A stretch of 57,580 nt of DNA. Source: a virus. Taxonomy: Duplodnaviria > Heunggongvirae > Uroviricota > Caudoviricetes. Under the pieces are notes generated by a model. The model made no database searches. It had not been told where the DNA came from and was given only the letters and a program-made list of their open reading frames with translations. The translations under genes were made by a program, and so were the position numbers. The stretch lies in IMG/VR virus record IMGVR_UViG_2529293084_000006, one strand, 5' to 3'. Below, piece after piece: positions 12,683 to 55,685 of the stretch; within the stretch, counting starts at the first letter, position 1, and the number at the start of each line of letters is the position of its first letter.

Positions 12683-13285
12683 TTACGCGTTAAGAAGGGT
12701 CAGGACGCGTTCACGCGCCATACGTTGATTAATGGCTTTCTGTAGCGCGCCGCTGTTGCGCGCCTCCTGCCATGCTTTCATGGAGCGAACAGCCGAGTCA
12801 GCCTCCTGATAGGCAGGATATGTCACAGGACTGACATCCAGCAGACGGGAAAAGCGGGTTATCTCGCGAATAACAACCCCGTCCTCATCCTGATACCACT
12901 CCTCGCCGTCACGGGCGACACGGAAAGCAAAAGATGACTGGTTAATATCTCCACGTTGCATCGGGGCCAGCACCAGATCACGAATGGTCTGTGTCTCCGG
13001 AGCCTGGATGTCATAGCGCAATCCGCGCTCATCAACTGAAAGATTCAGCGTGCCTGCTGCACTACGCCCAAGAATAAAATTAGGATCGTGGTTAAACAGT
13101 GCGCGTACATCATCACCAAGCACATCGTCAAAAGCGCCGGGCCGGATGATTTCGCGGAATGAACCAAATATCAGCTCAGAACGACAGTCAAACACCGATC
13201 CATAACCGATAATGTGCGCAGGGTTATCGTCATGCCGCTCAGCACGCACCTCACCGCTGTAACAACGGATTTCACGGTCATTCAT
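12683..13285 (-). CDS. Prohead protease, HK97 family
   Basis: ORF 12683..13342 trimmed to the ATG at 13285 (MNDREIR..., RBS GAGGGA upstream); sits between portal and major capsid. Confidence 0.7.
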   Translation of the reverse strand: MNDREIRCYSGEVRAERHDDNPAHIIGYGSVFDCRSELIFGSFREIIRPGAFDDVLGDDVRALFNHDPNFILGRSAAGTLNLSVDERGLRYDIQAPETQTIRDLVLAPMQRGDINQSSFAFRVARDGEEWYQDEDGVVIREITRFSRLLDVSPVTYPAYQEADSAVRSMKAWQEARNSGALQKAINQRMARERVLTLLNA

Positions 13286-13646
13286 TGGTTTTTCCCTCAT
13301 CATTTTTTGGGGGCTTAAAATCTCCTGCCGGGTTAGCAGCATTCACGCTTACCAGCATCTCATCCAGCCCTTCAACCGGATTCATATCCTCGAATGCGCG
13401 GGCTTCATTACGGCTCATCCATCCATCGGTAATAGCGAAGTGATAGAATTGCGCGCGCTCCTGCGGAGTTCCGCGTAAAAGCCCCGTCAGATTGAACCTA
13501 ACGTAATACCCGGCGGCTAACTCAGCGCGGGTAAACAAGCGACGGTTAAGCTCCTGCTCCCAGTTCGTTACCCACGGCATCATCGTGTAGCGGACAAACT
13601 GAATCGCCTGCGCAGAAATATTGGAGAATGTAACCAGGTGAATCAT
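13278..13646 (-). pseudogene. Portal protein C-terminal fragment (gene interrupted by the Mu-like insertion)
   Basis: 122-aa ORF; the frame ..VTFSNISAQ.. continues the N-terminal fragment ending ..INDLEKATF at 52920, so the two pieces reconstruct a ~415-aa HK97-type portal. Confidence 0.75.
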
Positions 13647-24572: not shown

Positions 24573-24643
24573 TATTCCGCAAAGCCTGCCGCCTCTCCTT
24601 CACCGTTACGCTGACTCAGAGAACATCATGAGACAGCGTAACA

Positions 24644-32431: not shown

Positions 32432-32523
32432 CCTGAATTTAACGGGCTTTAAAATCTGCGTGAAGCGCCTTTGTATTTTTCCCCTGAAAGCACTTCCTGA
32501 AATCCCGCAAAACCCGCCCTGAA
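32432..32523 (+). promoter_or_regulatory. Four direct CCTGAA(A) repeats upstream of gene I (candidate late promoter / activator sites)
   Basis: CCTGAA at 32432, 32483, 32496 and 32518 in the 176-bp G-I intergenic region, preceded by a hairpin at 32376..32400. Confidence 0.3.
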
Positions 32524-32546
32524 AATTCCCGGCTTATGCTGCCGGA

Positions 32547-48635: not shown

Positions 48636-50675
48636 ATGACGTCCAAATGGGTTCAACTATCATCAATGCCCGGAAACTTTACTGTTAAAGTTTCCGGTGG
48701 TACAGCGGCATTTCTTGAGGCTCCCTTTCCTCCGGCCGAAACAAAAGGAGGAATGACATTTGCTGACTGTCTCATCAGTTTTAATACACGGGATTGCCTG
48801 TGGGTAAGGCCAGTATCCGGTGATCCGAGTGTGGAAATTACCGGAGCGGGTATTGGTGCGGTCATTCCGTTAAGTGCTGATGTTGCCGGTACTGCTGAAC
48901 CGTCAGACTGGGATAATGCTGAAACACATACCCGTCCGTCAGGAAATGAAACTGCTTCCAGCTCCCCTTCCTGGTATTACGTGGTGGTTCTTGCTGGTCA
49001 GTCAAACGGTATGGCTTACGGTGAAGGTCTGCCACTGCCGGAGACATATGACCGCCCCGAACCGCGTATTATGCAGTTAGCCCGTCGCAGTACAGTCACG
49101 CCGGGAGGTAAAGCCTGTCAGTATAACGACATCATTCTGGCCGACCACTGTCTGCATGATGTGCAGGATATGAGTGGAAAAAATCACCCGAAAGCGGATG
49201 TGGCTAAAGGGCAATATGGCACCGTGGGTCAGGGGCTTCACATTGCCAAAAAACTGCTGCCGTTTATTCCGGCAGATGCGGGGATTCTGCTGGTTCCCTG
49301 CTGCCGTGGTGGTTCTGCATTCACGGCGGGTGCTGACGGCACGTACAGTGACAGCACGGGTGCTTCAGAGGACTCAGCCCGCTGGGGTGTGGATAAGCCG
49401 CTGTATAAGGACTTAATCAGCCGGACAAAAGCGGCACTGGCGAAGAACCCGAAAAACCGCCTGCTTGCTGTGGTGTGGATGCAGGGCGAGTTTGATATTG
49501 ATGCGAAGCCGACGGAGCATTCTGCGCTGTTTCTGGCGATGGTGGAAAAATTCCGCGCAGACCTGGCTGAACAGGCGGAACAGTGTACCGGTGGCAGTGC
49601 TGCTGGCGTTCCGTGGATTTGTGGCGATACCACGTATTTCTGGAAACAGAAAAATGAACCAGCATACCAGGCAATCTATGGCGGCTACAAAAACAAAACA
49701 GATAAAAACATTCATTTCGTTCCATTAATGACAGATGAAAATGGCGTGAATGTACCCACCAACAATCCGGCAGAAGACCCGGATATTGAATCCATTGGTT
49801 ATTACGGCTCAACGTGGCGTAACAGTGCCGCTACCTGGACATCTGCGGACCGGGCCAGCCATTTCAGTGCCTGGGCGCGCCGGGGTATTATTTCTGACCG
49901 TCTGGCCACGGCTGTTCTGACTCATGCAGGGCGAACCACAGTAAAAGCCGATGTTCCATCTTCTGAAACTGAAGCACCAGTGCCGTCACCTTCAGAAACT
50001 GAAGCAGTAACCACAACACTGCTGTCTTACCGTGTCAGTGAGTCAGAAGGAAATCTGAAAGCCCAGGGCTGGGAGCCGGCTGGCGGTAAAGCTGAAATTA
50101 TCAGTGATGCAGGAGGCACAGGTGGTAAGGCAATGAAACTGACCAAGGAAACAGGTAAATCATCCTGGTATCTGGATCATGATGCCGGTACTGGTGCTGA
50201 ACTGCTGAAAAATGGTGGTTTAATCAGTTGTCGTTTTAAAGTACCTGGCGACCTGGTGGCAAACCAGTATGTCATGGCGCTGTACTGGCCGGTTTCCTCT
50301 CTGCCGCAGGGTGTCACCCTGACAGGGGATGCAGGGAATAATCTGCTGGCATCGTTCTACATCCAGACAGACGCAAAAGACCTGAATGTGATGTACCACA
50401 ATGCAAAAGTGGCAACAAATAACCAGAAACTGGGAACCTTTGGTGCATTTGATAATGAATGGCATACGCTGGCCTTCCGTTTTGCAGGAAATAACAGCCT
50501 TCAGGTTATTCCGGTTATTGATGGTCAGGATGGTGCCGCGTTTACCCTGACGCAGTCACCAGTAGGAACTTTCCCGGTGGACAAACTCCGCGTAACGGAT
50601 ATCACCAAAAATGCAACTTACCCGGTGCTGATTGACAGCATTGTGGTGGAAGTGAAAAAAGCGGTAACAGAATAA
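48636..50675 (+). CDS. SGNH-hydrolase family esterase, likely a sialate O-acetylesterase of the prophage NanS-p type
   Basis: 679 aa; GQSNG block (VVLAGQSNGMAYGE) typical of SGNH hydrolases; size and multidomain layout resemble prophage esterases of enterohaemorrhagic E. coli; family assignment is from motifs only. Confidence 0.6.
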   Translation: MTSKWVQLSSMPGNFTVKVSGGTAAFLEAPFPPAETKGGMTFADCLISFNTRDCLWVRPVSGDPSVEITGAGIGAVIPLSADVAGTAEPSDWDNAETHTRPSGNETASSSPSWYYVVVLAGQSNGMAYGEGLPLPETYDRPEPRIMQLARRSTVTPGGKACQYNDIILADHCLHDVQDMSGKNHPKADVAKGQYGTVGQGLHIAKKLLPFIPADAGILLVPCCRGGSAFTAGADGTYSDSTGASEDSARWGVDKPLYKDLISRTKAALAKNPKNRLLAVVWMQGEFDIDAKPTEHSALFLAMVEKFRADLAEQAEQCTGGSAAGVPWICGDTTYFWKQKNEPAYQAIYGGYKNKTDKNIHFVPLMTDENGVNVPTNNPAEDPDIESIGYYGSTWRNSAATWTSADRASHFSAWARRGIISDRLATAVLTHAGRTTVKADVPSSETEAPVPSPSETEAVTTTLLSYRVSESEGNLKAQGWEPAGGKAEIISDAGGTGGKAMKLTKETGKSSWYLDHDAGTGAELLKNGGLISCRFKVPGDLVANQYVMALYWPVSSLPQGVTLTGDAGNNLLASFYIQTDAKDLNVMYHNAKVATNNQKLGTFGAFDNEWHTLAFRFAGNNSLQVIPVIDGQDGAAFTLTQSPVGTFPVDKLRVTDITKNATYPVLIDSIVVEVKKAVTE

Positions 50676-50821
50676 AAAAATCCCGCCGGTCATGATATGG
50701 CTGGCGGGAGCTACCTAACCCATAAAGGAAAATAAAAATACTCCCGAAGGAGTGGTTATCAGTCGCTTCGATGTTTTTACCCGATAACGAATTATGTAGT
50801 CAATATCAAAGGTAAGGTTAT

Positions 50822-51004
50822 ATGACATTCGTTCATACAATGCTGCTTTATTTCTGCGCTGTGGTCAGTGCGTTATATCTGGTGAGCGGCGGTTATAAGG
50901 TCATCAGAAATTATATTCGCCGTAAAATTGATGATGCGGCAGCTGAAAAACTCAGTAAAACAGCACAGGCACCGTCATCCCCAAACGACCCGACCCCGCT
51001 CTGA
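50822..51004 (+). CDS. Small membrane protein, unknown function
   Basis: 60 aa; one N-terminal TM helix then a charged tail. Confidence 0.35.
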   Translation: MTFVHTMLLYFCAVVSALYLVSGGYKVIRNYIRRKIDDAAAEKLSKTAQAPSSPNDPTPL

Positions 51005-51039
51005 TAACGGGGCAATATACCTGCAAAAGGAGAATATTC

Positions 51040-51285
51040 ATGCCAGAGATTAAAGGCACGGTTACTGAAGAGCTTGTCAAACAGGCACTTTATTCTGAAG
51101 AAGTGAACCGCGTGCTGAAGGCGCAGGTTCGCAAGGATTTTGAGGCACAAATCGACGCATATGTTGATGAAGTGCTGGCCCGAATGGTTGGCCGTTCTCC
51201 GGCTGAAAACAGCACGGAAAATGATCCTCAACCCGTAGAGCAACCAGAGCCGGTTCAGCCCGGAACTGACGGTACTATGATGTAA
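51040..51285 (+). CDS. Small acidic protein, unknown function
   Basis: 81 aa; acidic, Pro/Glu-rich C-terminus; GGAG RBS. Confidence 0.35.
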   Translation: MPEIKGTVTEELVKQALYSEEVNRVLKAQVRKDFEAQIDAYVDEVLARMVGRSPAENSTENDPQPVEQPEPVQPGTDGTMM

Positions 51286-51836
51286 CAATACCGACCGGCA
51301 GGTTTCCCTGCCGGGTGAGTTTGTTAATGCACGTTTTGTGTATTTTCCCTCCTGGGAGAACAGGCAGGACATATCAGCATCCTGAAACAGGAAGCATTTT
51401 TGGGTTTGTATGTCTTGCCATTTTGAGATCGAGAACGGCGATAGATGAGCTGTAAGGGAGTCTTACAGGCAGGGCAAACAGGCTCTTTCATCCATGATAA
51501 AGATCTCCTTTTTATGCATCTCTGCTTTACAGGAGACTGGGGAATATCATAGGATACGCCACGAGCTCGAAGTAAAGCATTGATGCAAAATTGTCTAAAT
51601 CGGCCCAGAATAGTTCGCGCTATCTGGGTCGCTCTTTATGTATGTAGTATCCCATTGATTTGAAACATACTACATATACGCGCGATCCTACCTTCACTAT
51701 ATAAAAAGTCAATAAAATGATCATTTTATGATCGTTTTCACCACCTAACTCTTCGTTTTCTTTAAGTAAATAATCACCTACCTGAATCATTGTTGATGAC
51801 TTTTCAATCTATTTGTTGTATCAATTAAACAAATCG

Positions 51837-51861
51837 AATCGATCGTTTTTGTCGATCGATT
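51837..51861 (+). promoter_or_regulatory. GATC-containing palindrome AATCGATCG-7bp-CGATCGATT about 45 bp upstream of com
   Basis: Read directly; two Dam sites in the arms. In Mu, mom expression depends on Dam methylation of GATC sites upstream of its promoter. Confidence 0.45.
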
Positions 51862-51904
51862 GCATGAGAAAGGCATCAACAACAAAGCAGGAGGTTATGC
51901 GGCC

Positions 51905-52105
51905 ATGTATCGAAACATACGGTGCCGACACTGCAATAAGCTACTGGCACGGGCCAGTTTCAGTTATCTGGAAGTAAAATGTCCGCGCTGTAAAACCCTC
52001 AATCAAATCACATCTCCGAGCGCCACAGAGCACCCCACATACACAAGGAAATCCTGTCGTGGGGAACAGAAAGCAAGTCACATCCCGAATCATCAGCACG
52101 CCTGA
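51905..52105 (+). CDS. com: Com-like zinc-finger translational activator of mom
   Basis: Track ORF 51860..52105 trimmed to ATG 51905 (AGGAGG RBS); [10 protein letters not shown]...[10 protein letters not shown] matches the Mu Com zinc finger as I recall it; overlaps the mom start. Confidence 0.7.
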
Positions 52106-52796
52106 ACTTATTCGCTATAACGACAATATCGTTGGTTATGGCTCCCGTGAGTTGCGGGTTGAGACAATAAGTTGCTGGCTGGCCAGACTGGTCATCGTCA
52201 ATAAACATTACAGCCACCGTTTCGTAAATAACTCCTACCTTCATCTGGGCATATTTTCAGAACGGGAACTTGTTGGCGTAATGCAATGGGGTTACGCCCT
52301 TAACCCAAACAGTGGTGCACGCGTCGTAACGGGTACGCAGAACCGAGAATATATGGAGCTTAACCGGCTATGGCTGCATGACTGTATGCCGAGAAACTCC
52401 GAATCAAGGGCAATCAGTTACGCGCTCAAGCTAATCAGGCAGCTTTATCCGCAGGTACAGTGGGTTCAGTCGTTTGCAGATGAGCGTTGTGGCTGTCTTG
52501 GTGTCGTGTATCAGGCAAGCAATTTTGATTATGTAGGCAGCCATGAATCAATATTCTATGAACTTGATGGCGAGTGGTATCACGAGATTTGCAGGAATGC
52601 CATTAAACGAGGCGGACAACGAGGTGAACATCTGAGGGCTAATATTGACAGAGCCAATGTTCATAAGTTCCGACAGTTTCGTTACATCCGGTTTCTGAAC
52701 AAGAGGGCCAAAAAACGCCTCAACACAAAGCTATTCAAAGTCCAGCCTTACCCAAAACCACAAACAGTTAAAACTGGTTTGAAAGAGAGTGAATGA
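52059..52796 (+). CDS. mom: Mom-like DNA modification protein
   Basis: 245-aa ORF overlapping com, the last gene before the right end, as in Mu. Confidence 0.65.
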
Positions 52797-52840
52797 GCGC
52801 TTAAAAACTCATTCTAAAACTCAAAAGAAAAGCGCCGATT

Positions 52841-52924
52841 TAGTATCAAATAAGTTGCGTATCGGCGTTTTTCAGCAGTATCAAATGAAATGCAAATCGG
52901 TATCAAAAAAATCGCCGCGCTATA
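52841..52924 (+). repeat. Mu-like right end with three inverted transposase-binding repeats (R1-R3-like)
   Basis: GTATCAAA at 52841, 52878 and 52899; the last 30 bp align in inverse orientation to the left end (TTGATACC at the same offset). The terminus reads ..GCGCTATA, not the canonical ..CA. Confidence 0.55.
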
Positions 52925-53804
52925 AGAAGGTGGCTTTTTCGAGGTCATTAATCATGTGCGCAGGAATATTGAAAATACCGGCAATCATTGAACGGTTCAG
53001 TTTCATCATGTCAATGATCTGAGCGTCAACTGGCGACACAGTCAGTGCCTTGTAATCCAGATCGGCTGGCAGCAGCATGGTTTTGTTTTCCTGGCTGCGT
53101 AACGCCTGCGATGCCTTCTGCCACTGATCTTTAAGCCAGCCCCAGCTGTCCTTATTGAGTCCGCTTTTAACGGATACTATCCCCGCCGGACGGGCATTAC
53201 CGCTGAAGAAGCTTTCTGTGTATTTCTGACCGCTCATCCCCATGCCTATTGTTTCGGCATGTTGCATAATCGGACTCAGCCCCATCTTCTGATTATTACC
53301 CAGCGCACGGATGTGGATCATATCGTCGGGGCTGATCGCAAACGCCCCATATTCGTTGTACAAACCGTAGGTATATCGGCCACCAGTATTCATCAGCGTC
53401 GTTTCCCACGGCATACAGCAATCCAGGGATATGACTTCACCGCGACGATTACGTTTCACCCAGGTATACCCATTCCCCCAGCCAAGGATGTGACGTTGCT
53501 TCAGTTCGCGCCATTTGTAACTGGTTTGCCAGGTATTGGGCTCATCATGAACCAGATAAAACGCCGGATGATCGCGTGCGGGCTCAACCTTCCCATTGTG
53601 CCTGCGCATAACATGCAACGGCATCTGGGCAAGGCTGGAAGACAGGACATAGATACAGGAATACACCGCAGCCAGTTTCATCGCAGTTTCAGGACTGACA
53701 TAAACGTCTGTCCGGAACAGCCCATCAGTATCAACGGCATCCCCGGTTATCGGGGTGGAAGGATTCTCCAGTGATTTACTTCTGAACAGAGCATCAAGCA
53801 GCAC
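52920..53804 (-). pseudogene. Portal protein N-terminal fragment (gene interrupted by the Mu-like insertion)
   Basis: 294-aa ORF ending ..HMINDLEKATF then L-stop read from the Mu right end; continues in frame with 13278..13646. Confidence 0.75.
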
Positions 53805-53955
53805 GCGTCCCCCTTCTGGCCATAGCCAGTGCGCCCACCAGCAGTAAACCGCCGGACAGCATCAGAGCCGGAGCCATACCAAACTGCAGGTAAAACCCGC
53901 ACGTAAGCAGGCCAAAACCAGCCAGCCCGATAACATCAGCAATTAGTGATTTCAT
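53794..53955 (-). CDS. Small membrane protein between terminase and portal
   Basis: 53-aa ORF below the track cutoff ([26 protein letters not shown]...); ATG overlaps the terminase stop (ATGA). Confidence 0.3.
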
Positions 53956-55685
53956 AGAATTAAGAGAGCATCGTCCGGATCAAGAGATGAGAGGAAATCG
54001 TCGGGTTCTTTGAGCATTGCCCGACCGATCGCCATAATCAGCGCAACCGCACCATCGATTTTGTTTTCCGCCTGCTCCTTGACAGGCTTCACCACATCAT
54101 CGTTACCCGGAATGGTTTTGCCGACCACGTTGCCGATACACCAGGTCATGATGGGATTGCCGTCATGATGAAAGCGCCCCGATTCAATCGCCGCTTCCAG
54201 CTCTTTCATCGGATCGGACATGTTGGTGTAGTTCTGAATGATGGTGATGGGGTTCAGGTCTTCATCAGCAAGGTCATGCGACAGCCCGGTCGCCCCGAAG
54301 GGGTCGATGGGTGACTCACTGACCGGGCTGATTTTGTTCGCCGCTTTGGCCTCCTCGAGGATGTACCGATAATCCACCTCCGCACCAGCGGTAACAGTCA
54401 GAACGCCCATTTCCACCCATTTCTGAAAGCGTTCGGCTGTCCGGCGATCTTCATTTTTCTCGACGCTGTACACCGTGTCATACGGTACCCAGAAACGCGG
54501 GGCCACACTGTAGTAATGCGTTTTACCGTCAATCTCGCGGGTATAAAGTCGCGCCATGCTGTTCATATCCAGCTTACGCGCCAGGTCAAAGGCCAGAATG
54601 CACGGCTGCCCCTCGAACTGCTCAAGGGTCAGTGATTTATCCTCGCAGCTCTGCCAGCTCACCAGGTTGAAATACGCCGAACGCGCCGACACCCAGATAT
54701 TGAGGTGTTTTGTTTTAAAGACGTTTGCCAGACGGGCGTTATTTTTCGCACGCTGCTGCTGACTTAACAAAAATTCGCGATAAACCGACACGCCAATATT
54801 TGGATTGGCTTTTTCCAGCACCTGCGGGTCGATCCAGTCGTCACCTTCATCAACGGTATAGATGATCCCGAACAGTTCATCGTTGGGTACCGAACCGTTG
54901 AGCATCTCGATAACTTCCCGCCGCTTGTCGTAGCACGGCCCCTCAATGTTGTACCCGGCGGTGGTGATGGCCCACATCAGTGGCTGACGTCGCGCCCCCA
55001 TCCCGGTAAGCATCGTGGTATAAAGCGCATCGGTGGCGTGCTCGTGATATTCATCCACCACCGCACAGTGGGGTGATGAACCATCACCAGGGTTACCGAT
55101 CAGCGGTTCAAACCGCGCACCATCCTCCGGACGGTTCATGTTTGAGGCGTTAACCTCAATCCCGAACGCTTCCGTCAGCATGGGTGTGCGTTTACACATC
55201 AGTCGTGCCGGACGAAAGACTTCCCATGCCTGTTTCTCCGTCGTGGCACCGGAATACACTTCCGCGCCGAACTCGTTATCACAGGCAAAACAATACAGGG
55301 CGACACCGGCAGAGATTGCCGATTTGCCGTTCTTACGGGGGATTTCGGTATACACCTCCCGGAAGCGGCGCAGCCGGGAGCCTTTATTGACCCAGCCAAA
55401 CGCGCAGCAGATCACAAAGAGCTGCCACGGCTCCAGCGTGATGGGCATCCGTTTGAATGCCCACTCACCCTTGGTGTGCGGCAACAGCTGAATAAATTTC
55501 GCGGCCCGTTCAGCCAGGTCCTTGTCGAAGCGGTAACGAAACGACTTACTTTTTTCCGCCATCAGGTCATCAAGATGGCGCTGGCAGGCCTGAATCACAA
55601 ACTGGCAGGCCACAATCTTTCCGCGCACGACATCACGGGCATACTGATTTGCAGCATTTACGTTGGGGTAAGATTTCCGGCTCAT
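53952..55685 (-). CDS. Terminase large subunit
   Basis: 577 aa between small terminase and portal, with the size and placement expected of a large terminase. Confidence 0.8.

Follow-up and report, generated by a model that had tools for sequence, protein, structure and literature searches.

The mom promoter of phage Mu (Pmom) carries three GATC sites that are bound by OxyR when unmethylated, a box for the activator C, and poor -35 and -10 elements separated by a 19-bp spacer. Control of Mu mom by Dam and OxyR is documented (PMC3378877, PMC2909390), and in gtr of phage P22 pairs of GATC sites 13 bp apart lie inside each OxyR half site and overlap the promoter, with a GATC pair at -46/-33; phase variation is not known for mom (PMC2909390). 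In this work we analysed the DNA upstream of com and mom in the virus record IMGVR_UViG_2529293084_000006 (57,580 nucleotides, the whole of which is referred to as the window), concentrating on positions 51286-51859, which the initial annotation had described as a 570-bp GATC-rich non-coding leader of com/mom.

A second kind of element is relevant here, the morons, which are autonomous promoter-gene-terminator insertions in prophages. We consider it probable, though by no means assured, that the stretch consists of two back-to-back units, namely a com/mom control block and a self-contained moron cassette that is read in the opposite direction. Judged by alignment, com and mom own only the last ~94 bp (51811-51904), and the remaining ~480 bp most likely form a cassette of the moron type, in which a structured leader is unusually well conserved. 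The description as a single leader found no support: the relative JE86, with near-identical com/mom, shares the proximal ~94 bp only, and the remainder behaves as a replaceable cassette whose promoter-like site, ribosome-binding site (RBS), open reading frame (ORF) and terminator all face away from com.

The control block of com and mom

The control block (Table 1) is the sole upstream DNA common to all relatives of this com/mom. Identity between the window and the related locus L039 is 78% over the block, compared with 37-46% in its flanks, and among relatives with nearly the same com/mom, JE86 is alignable from about 51790-51811 and M18 from 51516. Within the block lies an exact palindrome with one GATC in each arm, as initially annotated, except that it ends 43 nt and not 45 nt before the com ATG. 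The surrounding stretch is indeed rich in GATC, with seven sites (51427, 51502, 51684, 51719, 51730, 51841 and 51854) against about 2.1 expected from local composition. Windows of 574 bp hold 2.0 on average across the sequence and at least seven in only 0.7% of cases, and the densest 200-bp GATC stretch of the whole 57.6 kb is 51655-51859, with five sites.

The proposal that this palindrome is a target of Dam regulation gained support from homology, and we regard it as the counterpart of the Dam/OxyR GATC cluster of the Mu mom promoter. The Mu sequence AATCGATC-N9-GATCGATT aligns with the window palindrome as the same 25-bp unit and holds Mu GATC sites 2 and 3. Both sites are located directly upstream of com-mom, contain a GATC pair 13 bp apart, and resemble the OxyR consensus equally well. 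When the window was scored against the published OxyR consensus, which measures resemblance in sequence only, four of the five best matches fell at 51789-51856 with 13-14 of the 20 specified bases (13/20 for Mu's own region), and dinucleotide shuffles of the local 124 bp reached a score of 14 in 0.4% of trials (P about 0.004). In sequence terms, then, the palindrome counts among control sites of the Mu-type Dam/OxyR kind, and a Dam-controlled mom is supported by homology.

The two promoters nevertheless differ in layout. In the window this cluster has two GATC sites only; the third, 18 bp upstream of the pair, is absent in the window, M18 and JE86 but present in Mu, L010, L011, L021 and L023. 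The window pair is also 27 bp closer to com (-51/-64, against -78/-91 in Mu), the distance from palindrome to com ATG being 70 nt in Mu. A Mu-type C box (TTAT-N6-ATAA) was not found in the window after the palindrome or upstream of com, and the C homologue of this phage (24147-24572) is 39% identical to Mu C. The palindrome was also considered as the site of the late activator itself, and this idea was rejected: a search of the window for a second copy found none, and no C box lies near com. More broadly, a GATC pair exactly 13 bp apart was found upstream of com in 9/13 com loci from several genera. They divide into a Mu class, in which the proximal site stands at -76 to -83 relative to the com ATG and another GATC, the third, is 18-19 bp farther up, and a short class at -51 to -54 that consists of the window, M18, JE86 and a locus from Edwardsiella. 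The mom promoter's Dam-site pair is thus conserved over several genera of enterobacteria, with two classes of position.

Because the palindrome stands so close to the com start, it would have to overlap the -35/spacer region of whatever promoter serves com. By homology with Mu, we propose a mechanism in which a repressor, most likely OxyR, would bind the unmethylated palindrome and Dam methylation would prevent this. The palindrome would overlap the -35/spacer of a weak com promoter with a candidate -10 at 51866-51871, and a protein bound there would occlude RNA polymerase directly, as in gtr and agn43, whereas in Mu it blocks an upstream activator. The likeness to gtr and agn43 lies in a 13-bp GATC pair within OxyR half-site-like sequence near the transcription start; with a putative start near 51879, the window pair would occupy about -38/-25, compared with -46/-33 in gtr. 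Unlike in those switches, neither a further pair of GATC sites nor an alternative OxyR site was seen here. For the short class as a whole, Dam sites within the core promoter predict a simpler, gtr/agn43-like occlusion of a toxic anti-restriction gene.

Several other features of this region deserve mention. The motif CCGCAAARCC-N19-TTAYGCT is exact in, and common to, the upstream regions of lys and of the protease gene I (24577-24612 and 32505-32540), and is probably the late, C-dependent promoter signature of this phage. The heptamer TTATGCG (51895-51901), between the com RBS and ATG, is like the TTAYGCT -10, is spaced from the ATG as at gene I and is invariant in window-type alleles, M18 and JE86; it looks coincidental, since transcription initiated from it would begin within com. 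Bracketing the control block is an imperfect inverted repeat of 23 nt (78% complementary; 51781-51803 and 51869-51891), which M18 retains (TTGTTGATGA/TCATCAACAA) and JE86 lacks; in the plus-strand RNA it would close a long-range helix round the palindrome (fold z-score -2.5).

Relatives also show variation downstream of this control block. In L031 (165-1217), L034 (165-1217) and L039 (1398-2450) a C5 cytosine DNA methylase (350 aa, PF00145) replaces mom, in a slot corresponding to window 52059-52796. These relatives keep the same com and the upstream GATC palindrome, and their divergence from mom loci starts at the com end, so that the Com-controlled slot carries alternative DNA-modification genes.

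An exchangeable cassette, probably read away from com

Between DUF826 and com, different minus-strand genes occupy the same slot in M18, JE86, STEC1587 and strain 102651, and the frame DUF6645-DUF1378-DUF826 ... com-mom with differing inserts is seen in these four and in L034. The cassette has a G+C content of 40% against 53% for the window. In Mu, gin abuts the mom promoter and nothing stands between gin and Pmom; four extra genes separate gin from com in the window. The cassette thus resembles a moron in its variable content between otherwise syntenic phages, in its lower G+C, and in having what consensus and conservation suggest to be its own sigma-70-like promoter and terminator.

The gene of the cassette is probably the 55-aa zinc-ribbon ORF, which is intact in 7/8 distinct alleles with variants that are 3 synonymous versus 2 nonsynonymous. 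A full HMMER scan recovered a 53-aa homologue (P0036) with 43% identity and all four Cys kept, and this protein occurs in two other Mu-like prophages, where its gene has the equivalent place and points away from com at a distance of ~390 bp (413 bp in the window). The only family signal of the 55-aa ORF is to Trm112p-like zinc ribbons and is weak (E 0.005, below the Pfam cut-off), and a sequence search of the PDB with the ORF gave no match. A 1-nt insertion in the window allele and in that of strain Sakai shifts the start by 4 nt from the ancestral ATG (51495) and changes MDKEPV to MKEPV. Downstream, a terminator-type hairpin is common to the ORF and the convergent DUF826 gene; M18, JE86 and L034 retain this hairpin with compensated base changes, even though the DNA beyond it differs, and in L039 the zinc-ribbon gene is followed at the equivalent place by a textbook terminator. 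Within the zinc-ribbon coding sequence (CDS) itself, an antisense terminator-like hairpin with a T run was noticed in the window (51380-51400, plus strand) and in L039 (3080-3116), probably by chance, since the conserved GKTY(K/R)PK codons dictate the T run.

Upstream of this ORF, the sigma-70-like promoter of the minus strand was matched independently at the homologous place in L039, and its hexamers are kept in the window, M18 (-10 TACGAT) and L039 (TAAGAT) with differing spacers. A transcript with the predicted start near 51678 would run through three hairpins, designated H7, H6 and the 73-nt H5, before reaching the RBS, so that the cassette would comprise promoter, ~190-nt hairpin-rich leader, RBS, 55-aa ORF and terminator. 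H7 corresponds to the inverted repeat of the initial annotation, which is present with perfect arms of 10 nt, not 12 (TATGTAGTAT, 51641-51650, and ATACTACATA, 51667-51676). Its stem, TATGTAGT/ACTACATA, is kept in L039 and its 16-20-nt loop is replaced. H6 lies inside a 50-bp scrambled patch and exists in four sequence versions, three of them perfectly paired (ACCCAGCATAG/CTATGCTGGGT in Sakai, GGTCCAGATAG/CTATCTGGACC in L029 and ACCCGGTAG/CTACCGGGT in L039) and that of the window with one bulge, while loops and flanks vary. H5 is the best conserved part of the non-coding stretch, with two pairs changed on both sides and several G-U-compatible changes.

Taken over the whole leader alignment, 95.8% of cells are paired and six pairs are changed on both sides, a number reached in 0/500 shuffles; the best-folding 300-nt windows of the whole sequence, corrected for G+C, also lie in this region. 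Between the window and L039 the non-coding stretch is better conserved than the CDS, with identities of 53% for the CDS, 95% for the Shine-Dalgarno sequence and start, 82% for H5, 69% for the promoter (both hexamers kept) and 46% for the spacer towards com. The suggestion that the length of the stretch could hold additional regulation or a small RNA was partly right, as to a conserved hairpin-rich non-coding stretch, which most likely belongs, however, to the opposite-strand gene. The covariance-model scan that had been proposed gave no known family: with Rfam 15 at permissive thresholds, 50600-53000 on both strands yielded best scores of 10-20 bits against thresholds of 45-114. A viral scan for the hairpin region returned 14 loci, a metagenome scan gave near-identical E. 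coli-type copies and chance matches only, and nhmmer on all fetched loci did not find the region in mom loci of other genera. A comparison of the leader with the com-mom mRNA for shared or complementary sequence gave none of note. In L036 (E. coli STEC1587) positions 886-1146 hold a partial tandem duplication of the hairpin leader, seen as two overlapping nhmmer matches (model positions 1-114 and 35-190).

The cargo behind H5 varies among three different ORFs: besides the zinc-ribbon ORF, a 175-aa protein in M18 and a 68-aa protein in the L045/102651 lineage are encoded there, each with its own RBS, and the M18 and L045 junctions lie directly after H5. The conserved leader is thus retained while the gene is exchanged, which is outside the usual description of morons. 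With the genes behind them differing between relatives, the promoter and the hairpin region behave like a portable expression module, and they offer a compact test case in which prophages keep an expression module and swap its cargo. A bolder version, which we put forward tentatively and hold to be possible at best, is that in Mu-like prophages the promoter and three-hairpin leader form a regulatory RNA module that is new and portable and would control whatever small cargo gene comes after it. Such a module may be Dam-sensitive, because GATC 51684 overlaps its -10 and GATC 51719 stands just upstream of its -35. It may further work in concert with the com/mom (or com/C5-methylase) operon, which is divergent and Dam-controlled, for instance if the zinc-ribbon protein acted on the hairpins or on the control region common to both. 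GATC 51719, which is kept in M18 and L039, is the centre of a perfect 14-bp palindrome (AAAATGATCATTTT, 51714-51727) upstream of the minus-strand -35, which may be a binding site or chance.

Existing annotation gives a different picture of the same DNA. In RefSeq it is a minus-strand CDS of 154 aa in Sakai (ECs_4996, a hypothetical protein of prophage Sp18 assigned to phrog_26524), and PGAP labels the copy identical to the window a frameshifted pseudogene. The window stretch is the same DNA with 95.8% identity to Sakai, and in it the long ORF is broken; it is not coding-like in any lineage. Among eight distinct alleles, which are 97% identical outside the 50-bp patch, insertions and deletions of lengths not divisible by three produce several frame configurations, and the "intact" versions use one or the other of two frames for the C-terminal third, depending on the allele. 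The N-terminal 49 codons carry 7 nonsynonymous versus 2 synonymous variants. In M18 the frame stops after 17 codons and L039 is without a start codon, yet the DNA is retained in both, better conserved than the neighbouring CDS. Homologues in a full HMMER pass over 1.84 billion representatives were near-identical fragments only, and an AlphaFold model of the 154-aa product was uninformative (predicted local distance difference test score 38). When the long ORF, segments of it and the proteins of the alternative cargo were searched against Pfam, PHROGs and PADLOC, there was no defence-system match, the yield being one PHROG of unknown function and weak zinc-ribbon matches. ECs_4996 was consequently rejected as a gene, and looks like a spurious fusion of the small ORF to an accidental frame across leader and promoter. 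The initial statement that no ORF of 60 aa or more exists is literally true (the two longest, of 56 and 55 aa, lie on the minus strand), but it misleads, because the 55-aa ORF is probably a real gene and the public frameshifted CDS spans 51324-51790. What is listed as a hypothetical protein or frameshifted pseudogene in >200 complete E. coli genomes would then be corrected to a small zinc-ribbon gene with a long structured leader.

Table 1. Positions of the predicted and annotated features in window coordinates
Feature	Position	Strand	Basis or remark
DUF826 gene	ends 51285	+	convergent with zinc-ribbon ORF (-, ends 51324)
Terminator-type hairpin CCGGCAGG-TTTC-CCTGCCGG	51295..51314	.	inverted-repeat search and folds
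55-aa zinc-ribbon ORF (MKEPVCPAC...ICPACSPRRENTQNVH), probable gene	51324..51491	-	ORF list, allele variants, HMMER homologue
RBS AAGGAG	51505..51510	-	9 nt before ATG 51495; 13 nt before the ORF's ATG 51491
Hairpin H5, 73-nt extended stem-loop	51515..51587	-	RNAalifold consensus
Second promoter-like site TTTACA-18-TAGGAT	51526..51555	+	points to com, inside H5; consensus scan
Hairpin H6	51603..51629	-	inside the 50-bp scrambled patch differing among alleles
56-codon ORF, N-terminal part of ECs_4996	51620..51790	-	judged not a gene
Hairpin H7	51641..51676	-	inverted repeat of the initial annotation; would form the extreme 5' end of the predicted minus-strand transcript
Sigma-70-like promoter TTGACT-16-TAGGAT	51685..51712	-	-35 51712-51707, -10 51690-51685, then CGCGCG; consensus scan
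com/mom control block	51811..51865	+	alignments of window, M18, JE86 and Mu
Palindrome AATCGATCG-N7-CGATCGATT	51837..51861	.	GATC at 51841 and 51854, 13 bp apart; OxyR half-site-like Dam target
com (66 aa)	51905..52105	+	Pfam Zn_ribbon_Com PF10122, E 1.9e-12; RefSeq annotation
mom	52059-52796	+	Pfam Mom PF25680, E 2.6e-77; RefSeq annotation

Alternative readings of the stretch

A number of observations weigh against the arrangement of two opposed units. On the com side, neither inspection by eye nor a scan located a com promoter with a convincing -10 and -35; the candidate -10 (GAGAAA) is poor, L039 having TATACT there, and the late-promoter motif of the phage is absent upstream of com. On the cassette side, promoter scans of the window gave 3 sites where 4.5 are expected by chance, and a com-facing promoter-like site occurs within H5 and again at the homologous place in L039. 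The covariation comes from eight sequences of about four lineages, and template-switch mutation can also produce perfect palindromes in the absence of selection. The consensus folding energy is -33.2 on the minus strand and -34.3 on the plus strand, the window allele folds better on the plus strand, and the one Sp18 small RNA candidate found in the supplement of an Hfq cross-linking and analysis of cDNA (CRAC) study is EcOnc37, which is located elsewhere. Neither G-U pairs nor consensus folding discriminates between the strands; the assignment to the minus strand rests on the promoter, RBSs, ORFs and terminators.

The equal folding of both strands is what would be expected if the hairpins were features of the DNA without an RNA role, either recombination or template-switch hot spots at the margins of an often exchanged cassette or palindromes bound by proteins. 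H6 lies in a patch of clustered changes between otherwise near-identical DNA, the cassette junctions adjoin H5, and correction of quasi-palindromes by template switching is a known route to perfect arms without selection. We nevertheless hold this explanation to be unlikely, given that the stems are kept while loops and linkers diverge between lineages only 46-53% identical in neighbouring DNA, and given that the positions of H7, exactly where the 5' end is predicted, and of H5, immediately ahead of the RBS, follow the layout of a 5' leader.

The com-facing site in H5 raises another alternative, a plus-strand leader or regulatory RNA of com/mom that would start from this site and run ~340 nt, across the hairpins and GATC sites, into com. 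It is in keeping with this that the site is present both in the window and in L039, that folding of the plus strand is no worse than that of the minus, and that no strong plus-strand terminator lies between the site and com. However, JE86 combines nearly the same com/mom and control block with none of this DNA, M18 has lost the key -10 adenine and the spacing (TCGGAT with a 17-bp spacer), and the RBS, ORFs and terminators of the stretch face the opposite way. As the hexamers are situated in stem parts of H5, their conservation may reflect that stem. A plus-strand leader is for these reasons quite improbable, although the site keeps a long com leader or an antisense RNA alive at low probability. 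Least credible, and in our view very improbable, is a real 154-aa protein gene of which the window copy is a mere frameshifted pseudogene, as the intact ORF in Sakai, a cluster of 205 member sequences, the phrog_26524 match (E 2.5e-52) and the PGAP label might suggest, in view of the frame changes, substitution pattern, ORF loss in M18 and L039, fragmentary homologues and low-confidence model described above.

Under the preferred reading, of a com/mom control block beside an opposite-reading cassette, the locus is an ordinary kind of element in a modestly new layout, and current understanding is not overturned. The novelty is modest and consists of the annotation correction and a variant promoter architecture; it is not a new kind of system.

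Prophage context

The window represents an Sp18-type Mu-like prophage of E. coli. The stretch 51286-51859 matches O157:H7 strain ECP19-798 at 100% identity and the Sp18 prophage of Sakai at 95.8%, and it was found in 233/5,426 complete E. coli genomes. A literature search on the Sp18 genes ECs4996-4998 found no paper. Downstream of the control block, AGGAGG at 51889-51894 precedes com. EcOnc37 (Sakai 5077340-5077410, minus strand) maps to about 50538-50608 on the minus strand of the window, antisense to the 3' end of the DUF6645 gene, assuming that the genome version of the paper is NC_002695.2.

The same phage has been seen as an insertion within Stx phages. In the window, the Mu-like prophage apparently sits in the portal gene of another prophage (52920-53804 on the minus strand and about 12683-13646), the terminase of which is located at 53952-55685, and this arrangement fits GenBank records of Stx phages with a Mu-like phage inside.

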